Shown: piece after piece, positions 1 through 5,439 of the stretch
Layout: each line of letters starts with the position of its first letter
Position numbering within the stretch: position 1 is the stretch's first letter
Origin: Bdellovibrionales bacterium
Lineage (GTDB): Bacteria > Bdellovibrionota > Bdellovibrionia > Bdellovibrionales > UBA840
Assembly (NCBI GenBank): GCA_037969075.1
Contig: JBBKWS010000059.1
Span: 1-18,232, forward strand
Length of the DNA stretch: 18,232 bases
Direction of reading: 5' to 3'
Notes under the pieces: model-generated
Told to the model about the DNA's origin: nothing
Seen by the model: only the letters and a program-made list of their open reading frames with translations
Database searches by the model: none
Made by a program: the position numbers and the translations under genes

Positions 1-485
1 TTAAGCCACTGATTTTTGTATGGGGTAAAGACTTTATAGTAATCATCTGTTTGTGTCTTAACTTCATTGGCTTCAAAAATTACCGCATCTTTATAAGAGT
101 GCAAATCAATACCATTTTCTTTTAACTTGGATTTTACAGCTTGGTCGCGATCTTTTGCATACTTCTCGTAGTCTCGGTTTATAAAAACCGCCTGCGCCTC
201 AATGGCACTGGCAAGCTTTGGTATTTCAATTTTTGGGTCACCGTAAAGAATGATAAGATCTGAACCCTTCTTTAATAAAAAATCTTTTATTTCTTGTAGG
301 CATTCTTGGATAAAAGTAAGTCTTCGATCGTTTTTATCTAGAGAAGATAAAATGTTTTTATCGAATACAAAAACAGGATAGACTTCGTCGCTGACATAAG
401 CCGCATGCGCCAAAGCATTGTTGTCATCTAGGCGCAGGTCTCGGCGGAACCACATGATTGATTTTTTATAGGAAGGAATGCTCAT
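1..485 (-). CDS. phrB: Deoxyribodipyrimidine photolyase (cryptochrome/photolyase family), N-terminal part; runs off the left edge
   Basis: Missing from the ORF track. Hand translation from ATG at 485 gives MSIPSYKKSIMWFRRDLRLDDNNALAHA...VYPVFVFD...NRDYEKYAKDRD...YKVFTPYKNQWL. WFRRDLRLxDN and YKVFTPY are photolyase hallmarks. The ATG overlaps the TGA stop of the cinA-like gene (ATGA, 482-485). Confidence 0.93.
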   Translation of the reverse strand, partial: MSIPSYKKSIMWFRRDLRLDDNNALAHAAYVSDEVYPVFVFDKNILSSLDKNDRRLTFIQECLQEIKDFLLKKGSDLIILYGDPKIEIPKLASAIEAQAVFINRDYEKYAKDRDQAVKSKLKENGIDLHSYKDAVIFEANEVKTQTDDYYKVFTPYKNQWL

Positions 486-1579
486 AGATGGTTTAATACA
501 CGCCAAAAGAAAATTTCAGAAAATTTCTTTCTAAGGTGACTGTCTCTTATTTGCCTTGTAGACAACCTCTCTATCGGTATATGTATTGTATTATTAATCA
601 AACCCAGCCATTCATTTTCATTCACCGGACGAATTTCAAAAAACATATCGTAATCTTCTACCGCATAACTTGCCGGCAAAGATGAAATTTGAAAGAAGTC
701 AAAATCAAGCCCTTTTATCAGAGGTAGAAGTCTCTCTCCAAAATAACCATGTGATGCGGCATCGACAAAAAGAACCTTTTTATCTTTTACTTTATCAACA
801 AATTCTTTTGCTTTATCAACATTACCTTTACCAACAATAGAGCCCTTAAATTCTTCTTCAACTTTCTCGGCGTACTGCGACCACTTGATACTATTTAGTG
901 GACTTACATCTACTCGTAATTCGATAAAGGGTTGGTGAATTCTGTATTCTGCTGTGAATGGACTTCCTTTAAAAATTTCTTGGGCACGCGATGAGACTTC
1001 AGATTCTGGAAAGCCAATGATCTGATATCTCTCTAACTGGATTTTATTTAACGAGATGCCTTTTAATTTTTCATGAATATAGTTTGTCCAGCAAGACTCA
1101 ATCTCTGCCCACGGGCCCGGTACTGCAAAGATATCTTTATTCGATTGATTTAAGTGAAACCCATCCGCTGTACCCACATCACTTTTCATTACCTTACTAC
1201 CCGTAGGAAACTGCGCTTGCTTAATATGGTTAAGTGTAAACTGTACGCCACGCTTTTGAATCTTTTGCTTTAATTCTTTTAACACGATGTCATCTTGATG
1301 AAGTGAAACATTCATGAACTTTGCAATCGCTTCACGAGTAAGATCATCCTCGGTGGGCCCTAGGCCACCACAGACAAAAATAATATCTGTCTTATCCGAT
1401 AGATACCTTAATGCACTCACTATTTCTTGGATGTCATCAGCAACTACCAAGTGATAAGCTATTCGCAAGTTGTAATCTAAAGCTTTTTCTGAAATTTGCG
1501 CCGCATTTTTATTAATAATCTGGCCTAGCAATAACTCATTTCCAATAGCTAATACACTTGCTTGTTTTTTAGTTTCCAT
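482..1579 (-). CDS. cinA: CinA-like competence/damage-inducible protein: COG1058 molybdopterin-binding-like pyrophosphatase domain plus a degenerate C-terminal domain
   Basis: IGNELLLGQIINKN, VVADD, GGLGPTEDDLTREA, GTADG and VPGPWAE motifs of the COG1058 domain; GFPESEV linker. The C-terminus lacks the PncC AESCTGG motif. Confidence 0.85.
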   Translation of the reverse strand: METKKQASVLAIGNELLLGQIINKNAAQISEKALDYNLRIAYHLVVADDIQEIVSALRYLSDKTDIIFVCGGLGPTEDDLTREAIAKFMNVSLHQDDIVLKELKQKIQKRGVQFTLNHIKQAQFPTGSKVMKSDVGTADGFHLNQSNKDIFAVPGPWAEIESCWTNYIHEKLKGISLNKIQLERYQIIGFPESEVSSRAQEIFKGSPFTAEYRIHQPFIELRVDVSPLNSIKWSQYAEKVEEEFKGSIVGKGNVDKAKEFVDKVKDKKVLFVDAASHGYFGERLLPLIKGLDFDFFQISSLPASYAVEDYDMFFEIRPVNENEWLGLINNTIHIPIERLSTRQIRDSHLRKKFSEIFFWRVLNHL

Positions 1580-2525
1580 TCTTCCTCACGCTTAAAATCT
1601 CGTCCAATGACAGTAAGTCTTCGATGTGTTTTACGCGACTACCATACGTACTAATATCTACAAGTGGAGCCCCTTTACCAGTTATCAAAATAGTCGCATC
1701 GGATTGGGCTGTCTGAAGATATTGATCTATGTACTCGTTAAAAGTCAATTTTTCATATCCTAAGTTTTGTGATCCGCACCCTAAAATTACATAGTCAAAA
1801 TCAATCGCATCCGTAACTTCTACTAGTGATTTTAAAGGCAGATTGGTGCCGAGATAATAAGACTTTATGTCATTCGCAATACAAAGCACATGGGATAAAA
1901 TAATGGCAATCTCATGCACGTCACCTTCGGGACTAGCAAGAGCAATTCGCGGAGCCTCTTCATTGGTAACAGGAGTGATTAAAAAACTAATTTGATCACG
2001 AACAACTGCAAATAAAAGATGCTCTTGCGCAATATTTAATTTTAATTCTAGCACTAGCCTATTCACCGTATTAAAAAGTGGTGATATCACCTTAAGAATA
2101 AAGTCTTTCGATGACATCTGAATACGATATTTATTAAGCTGTTGGTGAATCATGTCTACATCGTATTGATACAAGCAATCTATCGTTTCAGAAATAATAG
2201 TCTGAACCTCTTCATCGTTAATAACTGTAGAGCTCTTTTTTGATGCATCCTCAACCTTACTTTCTAACTTAGAAGTTAGGCTGTGATCTTGCTCAATAAT
2301 GGTTAGCTCATTCAATGTTAAATTAGCAATGCGTCCTATCGGCATACCCATTTTATTCAAGTGTTTTAACTTTTTAAGCTTTTCAACATCTTCAATAGAG
2401 TATGTGCGCTGGCCCGAAGGACTACGCTCGGGCTGTAGAGCATTATATCTTCTTTCCCATGCACGAATCGTGTGTACATTCATACCAACAATTTTAGCTA
2501 AGCCGCTAATATTTAAAATACCCAT
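1569..2525 (-). CDS. MerR-family transcriptional regulator with a cobalamin-binding-like C-terminal module (CarH/CarA/LitR-like)
   Basis: N-terminal MerR HTH with IRAWERRY (the CarH/CarA RxWERRY recognition helix); QEH at 167-169, PEGDVHEIA (D/ExH motif) and YYLGTNLP. Strong RBS AAGGAG upstream (2531-2536). Overlaps the cinA start by 11 nt. Confidence 0.88.
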   Translation of the reverse strand: MGILNISGLAKIVGMNVHTIRAWERRYNALQPERSPSGQRTYSIEDVEKLKKLKHLNKMGMPIGRIANLTLNELTIIEQDHSLTSKLESKVEDASKKSSTVINDEEVQTIISETIDCLYQYDVDMIHQQLNKYRIQMSSKDFILKVISPLFNTVNRLVLELKLNIAQEHLLFAVVRDQISFLITPVTNEEAPRIALASPEGDVHEIAIILSHVLCIANDIKSYYLGTNLPLKSLVEVTDAIDFDYVILGCGSQNLGYEKLTFNEYIDQYLQTAQSDATILITGKGAPLVDISTYGSRVKHIEDLLSLDEILSVRKNGN

Positions 2526-2564
2526 GAATACTCCTTTGTTAAGTTTCCTCAGTATTTCTTAGTT

Positions 2565-2597
2565 TTGTGGACAAGCTTTTCGTAGTTAACTATAGTT
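2565..2597 (+). promoter_or_regulatory. Predicted sigma70 promoter for the TIGR01777-SRPBCC gene, with an overlapping candidate operator
   Basis: TGGACA (2568-2573) - 17 bp - TATAGT (2591-2596). The dyad TTGT-gg-ACAA (2565-2574) covers the -35, and perfect palindromes TAGTTAACTA (2583-2592) and AACTATAGTT (2588-2597) cover the spacer and -10. Confidence 0.6.
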
Positions 2598-2622
2598 GAG
2601 TCCTACAAACAAAAAGGGCTAC

Positions 2623-4017
2623 ATGAACTATCTACTTACGGGCGCCACAGGATTTCTGGGACAAAACCTTTGCAATCATTATACTAAAGATCTAGCTAAG
2701 CTACGCATCTTAAGCCGGCATGCTAGACAATCTTTAGACAAATTCCCATATAATGCTCAATTTATCGACTGGGACCATGTCAGTGCCACTATATCGGCAG
2801 ATGACCTTAACTGTGATGCGGTGATTCATCTTGCAGGTGAAAATATTGCAGGAAAGCGCTGGACCAAAGCACAAAAGAAGAAGCTCTGGGAATCCCGAAT
2901 TAAGAGCACAACCGCCTTGGTAGAATCTATTTTAAAAGCACCCATCAAACCCAAGGTATTCATTTGCGCCTCCGCTGTAGGATTTTACGGTGATCGCTGG
3001 CAAGAGGATTTAGATGAAACCTCCCCTGCTGGTGAGGGTTTTTTAGCTGAACTTTGTGCAAAATGGGAAAGTGTTTGTGAGCCACTCGAAAGCGTTGGTG
3101 TCCGTGTAATTAATGTTAGAAGTGGTTTAGTTTTAGGCCTCAACGACGGGGCTCTAAAAGAGCTGGTAAAATTTTCTGACCTAGGAGTGCTTGGAAATAT
3201 AGGTAGCGGCAATCAATGGATGAGCTGGATTCATGTTGAAGATTGGGTAAATGCAATTCAGCATTGTATTTCTAACTCTAATATTTCTGGGCCAGTAAAC
3301 TTTGTTTCTCCTAGTCCTATACAACACAAGAATTTTATTAAAATACTATCAAGTCATTTGAACAGAGCTCCTTTTTTACCTCTACCAGCGACAGTGGCGA
3401 AAATTGTATTGGGAGAAATGGCAGGTTTGTTTTTAGATAGTCAAAAAGTGTACCCAACAAAACTGCTAAGCAGTGGGTTTACTTTTAATTTTAAAACTTT
3501 TGATAGCGCACTTCAAAACTTATATCCAAACTGTGGACAAGAACACATTCTAGAAAGACAAATGTTTTTACCTGTTGAAGTTAAAGATGTATTTCCATTT
3601 TTCACAGATCCTTATAATCTAGAAAAAATCACGCCGCCTTTTTTAAACTTTAAAGTCGTAAGCACTAGCGACAAGGTTGTACAAAAAGGCACAACAATAT
3701 CTTACAAATTGAAACTGCATGGACTGCCACTAAAATGGTTAACTAACATTGAGGACTTGGCTATCAACTCGCTATTTATTGATAACCAAACTAAGGGGCC
3801 ATATAAACGTTGGCACCACACACACACTTTTATATCGCTACCGCATGGAACATTAATGCGGGACCGAGTGTTATATCGATTGCCCTTTGGTTGGTTAGGT
3901 AGATGTATCGCGCATTTTTATGCAACCAAAGATGTAAATAAGATCTTTGACTACAGGACTCTAGTTTTAAAAAAGAGGTTTAGCCAAACTAAGAATGCGG
4001 AGCACATCAACTTATGA
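2623..4017 (+). CDS. TIGR01777-family atypical SDR (NAD(P)-dependent epimerase-like, DUF1731) fused to a C-terminal SRPBCC/START-like domain
   Basis: TGATGFLG Rossmann motif, VIHLAGENIAGKRWT, SAVGFYG, GFLAELCAKWE, QWMSWIH and GPVNFVSP. From about 3541 an SRPBCC signature follows (VFPFF..PYNLEKITPP, FIDNQTKGPYKRWHHTHTF, MRDRVLYRLPFG, IFDYR). ATG 2623 after AAGGG is preferred over TTG 2596. Confidence 0.88.
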   Translation: MNYLLTGATGFLGQNLCNHYTKDLAKLRILSRHARQSLDKFPYNAQFIDWDHVSATISADDLNCDAVIHLAGENIAGKRWTKAQKKKLWESRIKSTTALVESILKAPIKPKVFICASAVGFYGDRWQEDLDETSPAGEGFLAELCAKWESVCEPLESVGVRVINVRSGLVLGLNDGALKELVKFSDLGVLGNIGSGNQWMSWIHVEDWVNAIQHCISNSNISGPVNFVSPSPIQHKNFIKILSSHLNRAPFLPLPATVAKIVLGEMAGLFLDSQKVYPTKLLSSGFTFNFKTFDSALQNLYPNCGQEHILERQMFLPVEVKDVFPFFTDPYNLEKITPPFLNFKVVSTSDKVVQKGTTISYKLKLHGLPLKWLTNIEDLAINSLFIDNQTKGPYKRWHHTHTFISLPHGTLMRDRVLYRLPFGWLGRCIAHFYATKDVNKIFDYRTLVLKKRFSQTKNAEHINL

Positions 4018-4124
4018 TTACTCAAAATAATGTGAACTCACTGGTGATCTAATTATATTATAATAGTGAAGTGCGTTATAATTTTATTACTGACACTCTA
4101 TGGTTTCTTTTTAATGATGAGCCC

Positions 4125-4505
4125 ATGAAAATACTTACTCTGCTATTCTCATTTTTTAGTTTTACGGCGCACGCCAAGACAGTAAAGATTTACTGTGAGC
4201 CTGATAGTAGCAGCTCAGCAAACTTTACTTTAGCTGCATCTTTAGAAATAGATGAATCAAATAGTATCGTAACTGATGTATTGGTTTCCTTTAAAGATAC
4301 AGTGCAGGTCACACCATCACAGATTATAAATACCAAGGGCTACTTTCGTAGTATTGCCACCGAAACAAGTTATTCTTACCTATTTCCAATTCAAAATAAT
4401 TCTGCAATTGTACATTTTATTTTACGTATCAATACTGATAAGCCGTCAGAAATCGAAACCAAACTAGATAAAAAATATCTATCTAATTGCAACTTTGTTG
4501 ATTGA
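4125..4505 (+). CDS. Hypothetical secreted protein (126 aa) with two Cys near the mature termini
   Basis: ATG 4125 gives a classical signal peptide MKILTLLFSFFSFTAHA|K with an AxA site. The ORF-track GTG start at 4071 is probably too far upstream. Confidence 0.7.
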   Translation: MKILTLLFSFFSFTAHAKTVKIYCEPDSSSSANFTLAASLEIDESNSIVTDVLVSFKDTVQVTPSQIINTKGYFRSIATETSYSYLFPIQNNSAIVHFILRINTDKPSEIETKLDKKYLSNCNFVD

Positions 4506-4512
4506 TATACTC

Positions 4513-4539
4513 AAAAAAAATAGCCCCGCAGGGCTATTT
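4513..4539 (-). terminator. Intrinsic terminator between convergent genes, strongest for the minus-strand carbonic anhydrase-like gene
   Basis: Stem AAATAGCCC (4518-4526), loop CGCA, GGGCTATTT (4531-4539). The A8 run at 4513-4520 gives a U-tract on the minus strand. Confidence 0.8.
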
Positions 4540-4557: not shown

Positions 4558-5379
4558 CTAATAATTAATTGTAGATCGATCGTTTAACATTTGCTTTGGC
4601 CTGTTGTTCTTTGAATACCTTGCTTCAAACGCAGCAATTTGCTCTTTTGAAAACTCAATTGCAGTATTTAAAACAATCCAGTTCACACCTTCAGCACACG
4701 GTGGATGTGTCAAAGAACCCGCGTAATTATAAAGAGTAACTTTTGTCGGCATCAAAGCACTTAATAAAATGGGCTCTGAAATTTCTTTACTTGCACTTTT
4801 ACCCTCTGGAAATGAAGAGATGATCTTTGCTGCAACTGGATTCTCTTTTCCTGCTTTAACAAAAACACTTACAATAGCATGAAAATCTTTGTCATTTTTA
4901 TGAACAAACTGAATCTCTAGCGGAAATGCTTTACCTGACAAAGAGTGTTCACTGGGGCTATGAAAATCTACATTTTGTAAATTATAAACACTGGTTCTCA
5001 TTTTAATAGAAGAACCATCAGTAGGTCTCAACCGCAGTATGTTACCAGTATCTTCAACTCTAATCGGAGTCGCTACATAGGAGGCGCTAAATGGGTTGTT
5101 TTTAGTAGGTTTTTGCCATTTTAAATTAACCGGAGATTGATGTTTCCCCTCTTTACACATTACAAAGCTAGGATCCAAGTCGCCCCAATATTGTGGAGCA
5201 AAAGCACCTGCATACGACCAGACTGCATCCACAGGACTTGCTGGTGCAACCACTGGTTGGTTTTGCGTTTCCGCAGGCATACCACTATCTTCAAGTGGAG
5301 GTGGGATATCTACCTTTTCTGTGCTTGAGCAACTAATAAGAAAGGTTAGAGCTACGGCCGAAATTAATATACGAATCAT
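4558..5379 (-). CDS. Alpha-class carbonic anhydrase-family lipoprotein with a non-canonical active site
   Basis: WSY..G..PQYWG, C..GKHQSPVN, FHSPSEH, LEIQFVH, YAGSLTHPPCAEGVNW and NNRPKQ motifs. Lipobox LIS-C17 followed by a Pro-rich linker; RBS AAGGAG. Confidence 0.88.
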   Translation of the reverse strand: MIRILISAVALTFLISCSSTEKVDIPPPLEDSGMPAETQNQPVVAPASPVDAVWSYAGAFAPQYWGDLDPSFVMCKEGKHQSPVNLKWQKPTKNNPFSASYVATPIRVEDTGNILRLRPTDGSSIKMRTSVYNLQNVDFHSPSEHSLSGKAFPLEIQFVHKNDKDFHAIVSVFVKAGKENPVAAKIISSFPEGKSASKEISEPILLSALMPTKVTLYNYAGSLTHPPCAEGVNWIVLNTAIEFSKEQIAAFEARYSKNNRPKQMLNDRSTINY

Positions 5380-5410
5380 TCTGAACTCCTTTTATACTTT
5401 TATATGATCA

Positions 5411-5439
5411 AGTATAGAGCGAAAGATTTCATAGGCCAA
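5411..5439 (-). promoter_or_regulatory. Predicted sigma70 promoter for the carbonic anhydrase-like gene
   Basis: Minus strand TTGGCC (5439-5434) - 17 bp - TATACT (5416-5411), about 30 nt upstream of the ATG. Confidence 0.5.

Follow-up and report, generated by a model that had tools for sequence, protein, structure and literature searches.

Locus and gene features

The window, the whole stretch of 18,232 nucleotides analysed here, carries on its minus strand an ORF at 4558–5379 whose 273-aa product in genome G000 we call P0001. A Shine-Dalgarno sequence, AGGAG, can be read directly 6 nt 5′ of the ATG (5386–5390, minus strand), and an intrinsic-terminator-like hairpin with a T run follows the gene (4518–4539, minus strand; 4 such sites vs. 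0.9 ± 0.9 in shuffles), in agreement with the ribosome binding site and terminator of the preliminary description. The promoter that it also proposed fared less well: the weak sigma-70-like site TTGGCC-17-TATACT (5411–5439, minus strand) scores 9/12 and is at chance level (5 sites vs. 3.1 ± 1.7 in shuffles).

P0001 has the signal peptide, lipobox and conserved Cys of a bacterial lipoprotein, recognised by pattern match (5329–5379, minus strand), with the lipobox LISC, Ser at +2, and a Cys17 that is invariant in 22/22 rows of our alignment A1. By the E. coli rule, the Ser at +2 would sort the protein to the outer membrane. Residues 18–53 (5221–5328, minus strand) form a Pro/Glu-rich, disordered tether in which pLDDT is mostly <50 and homologues are unalignable, and residues 54–273 (4558–5220, minus strand) form an alpha-carbonic anhydrase (CA)-fold domain with a C75–C228 pair. 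Pfam, phmmer and an AlphaFold model agree on this domain. P0001 contains one PF00194 domain (E 1.9e-34 in the domain search), its best solved-structure matches are bacterial alpha-CAs at ~34–38% identity (top 6im0, E 6e-48, phmmer), and the model (mean pLDDT 81.7, residues ~13–52 low) reaches a target TM of 0.90–0.93 against bacterial alpha-CAs. P0001 is the sole PF00194 match in G000; no NCBIfam model matched it, its ESM Atlas matches are generic PF00194 clusters only, and among named loci those closest to it come from Bdellovibrionales MAGs. Five of the 111 lipobox-like ORFs in G000 end in N[YFHW], as P0001 does, compared with 26/2401 ORFs overall, which may reflect composition or a weak C-terminal signal.

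Upstream of the gene lies an amino-acid ABC transporter; a TIGR01777 gene and the gene for a 144-aa protein lie downstream. The 144-aa exported protein (4071–4505, plus strand) is convergent with the CA gene, is adjacent to it also in G001 and G003, and had no Pfam or NCBIfam match. A cluster at 482–4017 includes a MerR-family regulator (1569–2525) and a TIGR01777/polyketide-cyclase-like (PF03364) fusion (2596–4017), and the ORF at 3–506 is one that we take to be photolyase-like; together this group looks like an ordinary light-stress cluster. No neighbour was conserved across families within flanks of 1–5 kb, and those in common were shared only within a genus or family, so we rejected a functional operon. 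Sixteen longer homologues revealed no informative fusion partner in what was a weak search, and the one apparent fusion, P0201, is probably an assembly chimera: its CA breaks off at NNNR, near the C-terminus, and runs into an ABC-permease-like tail, and the one contig that carries it is 2 kb long. Recent horizontal acquisition was also rejected, as the GC content of the gene (0.389) is close to that of the genome (0.378) and genes from the same genus are sisters in the tree.

Active site substitutions

Sites are given in hCA II numbering (His94, His96, His119, His64, Gln92, Thr200). In phmmer alignments the zinc triad of P0001 reads D138/H140/Q157 at the His94, His96 and His119 positions, so it lacks the three-His triad of an active alpha-CA. 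Alignment and codons place Asn (N136, AAT) at Gln92 and Asp (GAT, 4968–4966) at His94 in the first zinc motif, N136-V-D138-F-H140 (4960–4974, minus strand), where His96 is kept (CAT, 4962–4960). The second motif, E155-I-Q157 (4909–4917, minus strand), keeps Glu117 and has Gln (CAG, 4911–4909) for His119, and in T111-G-N113 (5041–5049, minus strand) an Asn (AAC) stands in for the proton-shuttle His64. These codons, together with H225 (CAT), C75 and C228, were re-read and are as first described.

Two further changes, missing from the earlier list, were found in I169 (V143I, in the CO2 pocket) and S171 (G145S, which accompanies Q119 in the clade table described below), at 4867–4875 on the minus strand. 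At 4705–4710 (minus strand), T224 retains Thr199 and H225 corresponds to T200H, a residue that is natural in hCA I (PMC6158936). The substitutions beyond the triad are thus H64N, Q92N, V143I, G145S and T200H. In the CO2 pocket and shuttle set, N113, N136 and I169 are changed while V159, L223 and W234 are kept, and the gatekeepers Glu106 and Thr199 and the second-shell Glu117 are present as E144, T224 and E155.

The preliminary description would have fallen had these substitutions been sequencing errors or private to one strain, and both can be ruled out. The three nearest homologues (P0002–P0004, 71–80% identity) and G001 are all D/H/Q, independently of the strain in the window, and G001 codes H96 and Q119 by other synonymous codons (CAC, CAA). 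Contigs from two runs of one sample also showed 0 differences across the gene, a match that is not independent because the sample is possibly the source of this DNA. The same sample holds a second, related-strain contig over 4512–5389 (run X2 record 3) with 146 differences at depth 20.

Distribution of intact and eroded copies

A profile of A1, built from 22 relatives, was searched against 384 genomes of the order and matched 60, in all of which the triad could be read. An eroded triad was found in 42 of these (43 proteins), an intact clade copy in 17, and an unrelated intact copy in one (G274). By family, the gene occurs in 7/7 genomes of f1 (counting G000), 23/26 of f2, 27/109 of f5 and 0/182 of f10. 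The triad is eroded in all 7 f1 genomes and in 21 of the 23 f2 carriers, and retention is therefore highest where the triad is eroded. The eroded triads observed were DHQ, EHQ, ERQ, HHQ, DHH, THH, QRQ, QKQ, EKQ, SRQ, SHQ, LHQ, QHQ, MHQ, HRQ and HYQ. Two genomes carry a second alpha-CA: G229 has two eroded paralogues (L109 and L126; ERQ and EHQ), and G233 has an ERQ copy and an unrelated intact copy (L103, L148).

In the search for named loci, all 49 from outside Bdellovibrionota are HHH, as are 18 of the 19 matches found outside the order in a 401-genome sample of the phylum. The nineteenth (L166, G441:C5:64429-64851), from another Bdellovibrionota family, is a far-diverged remnant, an exported CA-like protein of reduced length that lacks all three His (E 5.5e-7). 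Seven of 16 retrieved out-of-order members had the clade signature, HHH, His64 and Thr200, and no lipobox was seen in them by eye. In the Bdellovibrionota subfamily of P0001, some members retain the complete set of catalytic residues, including all of those found outside Bdellovibrionales, and the intact state would be ancestral in the subfamily. Most Bdellovibrionales members carry the lipobox, the pattern being present in 74/82 eroded clade members. Eroded triads also occur outside the clade, in 18/122 sequences of a sample biased by the query, 15 of them with Gln119. These include P0176, P0177, P0182/P0205, P0033, P0042, P0044, P0197, P0200 and P0019, with one cluster named Myxococcota, and from these alignments bacterial CARP-like proteins (after the animal CA-related proteins, CARPs) may be scattered widely beyond Bdellovibrionota.

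Repeated loss of the zinc site

In trees built without the site columns, the Bdellovibrionota copies form one group (SH-aLRT 99, 62 rows). Also dropping the signature columns blurs the clade, the best split (0.853) then holding 124/125 members plus 17 long-branch outsiders. Within the group, intact and eroded copies are sisters in the same genus in the starred pairs G382/G383 (99), G292/G293-G294 (100), G295/G297 (95) and G245/G243-G244 (100). Triad erosion requires 8 changes by parsimony or, if His is never regained (Dollo), 13 losses on the resolved tree, some of them on weak branches. A single origin of the eroded form was rejected on the 53-row thinned set (AU p 6e-11 for all eroded rows together), and holding all Gln119 rows together gave p 6e-79 on the same set. 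Some His119 states may be reversions, for example the THH of G315 inside an L/S/T-H-Q group. Three copies (L138 and L141, from G244 and G243, and L131, from G380) have an intact HHH in damaged surroundings (H64R, Q92E and V121K; or E117A, T199S and T200H), and are possible early stages of erosion.

Positions lost and positions kept

The clade table holds 240 distinct domains, 118 of them in the clade (36 intact and 82 eroded). His119 is replaced in 74/82 eroded members, 72 of which have Gln there and 2 Glu. Nine different residues occupy position 94 among the eroded members (E 44, Q 10, D 9, S 4, V 3, L 2, T 2, M and I) and position 96 is Arg or Lys in 34/82, so no single new metal site is common to the clade. 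Other losses among the 82 are H64 in 72, Q92 in 78, V121 in 64, V143 in 59, G145 in 78 and T200 in 51, whereas intact members mostly keep all of these. A median of 5/11 other canonical positions is changed in eroded members, and none is changed in 20/36 intact clade members. These counts include kin; on independent pairs (5 starred only) the direction mostly agrees, with T200 opposite, and no significance is attainable.

E106, H107, E117, T199, the Cys pair and W209 are kept, with E106, E117 and T199 in nearly all members. A signature absent from outsiders, L86, W88, P91, S148, N238, T239 and a terminal N-aromatic, is common to intact and eroded copies. Its first part, L86-x-W88-x-x-P91 (5107–5124, minus strand), has weighted frequencies in eroded members of 1.00 for L, 1.00 for an aromatic and 0.98 for P, with W and P rare outside the clade. 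N238-T239 (4663–4668, minus strand) is at 1.00 and 0.95 in eroded members, with N at 1.00 in the intact clade and the position variable outside, and an N[YFHW] end, here N272-Y273 (4561–4566, minus strand), is found in 69/82 eroded members, 31/36 intact clade members and 5/104 intact outsiders. P91–K93 of P0001 align in phmmer to A63–K65 of the Thermovibrio enzyme, in which V64 and L68 are reported in the dimer interface and K65–K247 across the tetramer interface (PMC7662607), which suggests that part of the signature falls where that enzyme oligomerises. Because members from other orders that are intact and not lipoproteins have the patch too, its role may be no more than structural.

The pocket around the triad behaves differently in different lineages. 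Over seven pocket positions, the mean number of distinct residues per column in the four D/H/Q sequences is 2.43, compared with 1.48 overall (P ~0.004), whereas the same positions in intact f5 members are more conserved than average (2.14 vs. 3.84 overall). The seven positions were picked after the clade-wide table had been seen, and signature conservation in subsets is circular. Position 121 is V/I/L/A and position 200 is H/Y/F/T among these four sequences, and at the H225 position the five nearest sequences have Y/F/T/T/S (the closest three having Y, F and T), so H225 can be ruled out as a substitute metal ligand in this lineage. D138 is common to the 4/4 nearest sequences, and the next two relatives have V (P0005) and E. 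The idea, offered earlier as one reading, that an Asp/His/Gln(/His) site holds a different metal or does other chemistry is accordingly weakened for P0001: H225 is not conserved, D138 does not extend past the nearest kin and the pocket changes faster than the protein average, which makes a re-purposed metal site unlikely here.

The same data bear on whether P0001 is a slow, eta-like CA in which Asp138, His140 and Gln157 hold zinc or another metal weakly and low periplasmic CO2 hydration suffices. Asp, His and Gln are each able to ligate metal, D138 is shared by the nearest sequences, and E106, E117, T199, L198 and W209 are kept. In hCA II, T200H and V143I are each reported to impair the enzyme only in part, and PMC5437132 describes a His94Asn variant of hCA II with reduced activity and, more generally, carboxamide-ligand variants that retain activity. 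Since the His-His-Gln enzyme PfCA is active, P0001 may likewise have some residual activity. In P0001, however, two ligands are changed together with H64, Q92, V143 and T200, the next relatives carry Val or Glu at 94, and orthologues with L, M, I, S or T at 94 or R/K at 96, which could not form the site, are equally conserved. H119Q is listed among the hCA II mutants that drastically lower zinc binding (PMC10175565), and TgCA_RP, an X/H/Q protein that keeps the gatekeepers, is described as inactive (PMC5437132). We consider a slow enzyme of this kind unlikely.

A further alternative is that the pocket was re-purposed for a new ligand or for zinc-free chemistry, as in the plant CAL enzymes, of which CAL-1 and CAL-2 are reported to have lost two or three His yet to be catalytic (PMC10700139). 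This fits a sister lineage, ERQ, best. In 24 ERQ sequences the pocket has been re-frozen (Y64 in 20, R67 in 23, K92 in 23, E94 in 24, Y121 in 23 and H200 in 23) with above-average conservation (P ~0.03), and Arg96 could replace the charge of the metal, although the re-freezing could also be structural (K92–E94 and R96–E pairs). A conserved, rebuilt site of the CAL type is seen only there, since the same positions drift in the lineage of P0001, and no biosynthetic or transport gene is linked across families in flanks of 1–5 kb. The ERQ lineage is thus the best candidate for a metal-free new function judging from its residues, while for P0001 itself re-purposing seems doubtful. The ERQ sub-lineage (Y64, R67, K92, E94, R96, Q119, Y121, S145, H200; L096–L105, L012, L014, L015, L109, and P0007–P0026 in part) falls in family f2, mostly genus g6. 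In 11 ERQ genomes a conserved membrane-protein gene, presumably queuosine-precursor transporter-like, adjoins the ERQ copy.

Selection on eroded copies

We calculated dN/dS by Nei-Gojobori over the domain; 9/22 pairs were saturated and gave no value. Values were 0.007–0.124 in the 9 eroded pairs with computable dS, 0.015–0.057 in 3 intact pairs and 0.111 in one mixed pair. The nearest pair, G000/G001, gave 0.070 at a dS of 1.72, which is near saturation, and the two least saturated eroded pairs gave 0.052 and 0.030. Gln119 is coded by both CAA and CAG, none of the 43 eroded genes has an internal stop, and the only broken copy (G381) has an intact triad. P0001 therefore has two features of a CARP: zinc histidines replaced on an alpha-CA fold (two of three) and a gene maintained by selection (nearest-pair dN/dS 0.07, no stops).

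These results bear on slow decay, in which the enzyme has become dispensable and jobless, and nothing but selection against misfolded protein in the envelope preserves it ahead of deletion. The gene has no match in 324/384 genomes of the order, all of f10 included, and the lack of a beta-CA match in some eroded genomes described below also points this way. Against it, eroded pairs have dN/dS as low as intact ones, the lipobox, RBS and signature are kept, and a 20-member, all-eroded clade has persisted over >0.6 substitutions per site. Slow decay is in our view very unlikely, and the earlier statement that this is not a decaying pseudogene is borne out by order-wide retention, low dN/dS, the conserved lipobox and erosion of the whole catalytic apparatus together.

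Other carbonic anhydrases in the same genomes

G000 encodes a beta-CA that has no signal peptide and in which the CxDxR and HxxC motifs are intact, and a hexapeptide protein on contig C45 that we take to be gamma-CA-like. Among near-complete carriers, a beta-CA was found in 14/14 genomes with an intact triad and in 26/34 with an eroded triad (Fisher p 0.085; kin are not independent). The eight eroded genomes with no beta-CA match are G005, G010, G020, G237, G292, G314, G317 and G383. In three same-genus pairs the eroded member is also the one without beta-CA and in none is this reversed; on independent pairs, the 4 that are starred are too few for significance. There is a hint here that the need for CA lapsed in some lineages, as slow decay would have it. 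The same eight genomes can be read in favour of a slow enzyme, since some CA activity may still be supplied there by the eroded protein. Replacement by an iota-CA was rejected, with PF08332 matching 5/59 genomes, mostly weakly, and 1/8 of those without beta-CA.

Comparison with known systems

Like the bacterial periplasmic alpha-CAs (Persephonella 6im0, Thermovibrio 4c3t, Neisseria 1kop), P0001 is exported and has the fold, the disulfide pair and the QSP, SEH, GSLT-PPC and N-R-P-Q motifs. It differs from them in lacking H94, H119, H64, Q92, V143, G145 and T200 and in adding the W88/P91/N238/C-terminal NY signature and a lipobox followed by a disordered tether.

The nearest parallel is TgCA_RP of Toxoplasma which, with its apicomplexan orthologues, shares an X-His-Gln triad, absence of His64, retention of E106/T199 and a lipid anchor (PMC5437132). 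TgCA_RP itself is described there as F/H/Q and GPI-anchored with no measurable activity, and its Theileria orthologues as having Asp at the first triad position (PMC5437132). Unlike P0001, it is eukaryotic and eta-related and arose independently, and its inactivity is reported as measured, while that of P0001 is predicted. The eta-class PfCA also has Gln at the His119 position and no His64, and two genomes in the P0001 family (G004 and G006) are exactly H/H/Q as it is. PfCA keeps His94 and is active, whereas P0001 has Asp as its first ligand, which places it outside the His-His-Gln eta class, and groups with bacterial alpha-CAs.

Animal CARPs VIII, X and XI and the CA-like domains of RPTP beta/gamma are likewise reported as alpha-CA folds without one to three zinc His and under selection (PMC2873310, PMC9032886). 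CA10 is reported to bind neurexin (PMC8024894) and CARPs to enhance MCT1 transport (PMC6609565). P0001 is probably not orthologous to these proteins; its own family has intact and eroded orthologues in the same genera, with the loss repeated at least 8 times. Its nearest kin are intact Bdellovibrionota alpha-CAs and its best solved matches bacterial, which, from trees built without animal CARPs, argues against orthology with CARP VIII/X/XI. The plant CALs of Lycopodium alkaloid synthesis are likewise built on an alpha-CA scaffold in which other residues stand at two or three of the His ligands (PMC10700139). They differ in their reported new catalysis and pathway context; P0001 has no conserved new pocket, and no pathway genes are linked to it. 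Further CA literature was drawn on (PMC7642793, PMC5746736, PMC12205326).

Proposed role and significance

Taken together, P0001 is probably a lipid-tethered, likely outer-membrane adaptor of the CA fold, a pseudoenzyme without useful zinc catalysis whose retention would be owed to binding by a surface that the intact form had before it. The membrane-tethered, CARP-like binding or scaffold protein first suggested is supported by order-wide retention, low dN/dS, co-erosion and the conserved lipobox, while metal loss, activity loss, localisation, the binding role and its surface are what we infer for P0001 from these data. The zinc ligands, proton shuttle, Gln92 and CO2-pocket valines have eroded together, independently in many lineages, while purifying selection has held the fold, disulfide pair, E106/E117/T199 and clade patch. 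Gln119 and Ser/Ala145 may be filler that the fold tolerates after zinc loss. The need for CO2/bicarbonate conversion would be covered by the cytoplasmic beta-CA, or may have lapsed. The retained role would be non-catalytic binding, either in a self-oligomer or to a partner in the envelope, and the likeliest site for it is the W88/P91/S148/N238/T239/C-terminal NY surface already present in the intact form.

Bdellovibrionales is an order known for predatory bacteria, and vaccinia D8 is a dead CA fold that serves attachment. A more speculative idea, which we regard as improbable, is that the emptied cavity is a ligand-recognition pocket retuned by lineage, fast-changing in P0001 and re-frozen in ERQ with Arg replacing zinc, that recognises prey or envelope molecules or performs metal-free chemistry. 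If this were true, the family would offer a natural series, repeated many times over, in which a metalloenzyme turns into a receptor or a new enzyme.

Zinc-less alpha-CA relatives have already been described in animals, viruses, apicomplexans and plants, and P0001 belongs to a bacterial, order-wide family. As of 2017 such relatives were stated to be unknown in early branches of life (PMC5437132), and no bacterial alpha-CA pseudoenzyme or CARP appeared by title or abstract among the matches listed in our literature search, which had most subscription journals outside it. At least 8 independent changes converge on His119Gln, the change seen in the eukaryotic relatives TgCA_RP and PfCA. Since single genera contain both intact and eroded orthologues, the causes and course of pseudoenzyme origin can be tested directly on the natural sister pairs G382/G383, G294/G292, G295/G297 and G244/G245. 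As judged from the triads, the label 'carbonic anhydrase' is probably wrong for ~70% of the Bdellovibrionales genomes that carry the gene, and the family would imply that an exported bacterial alpha-CA can serve in a non-catalytic role.
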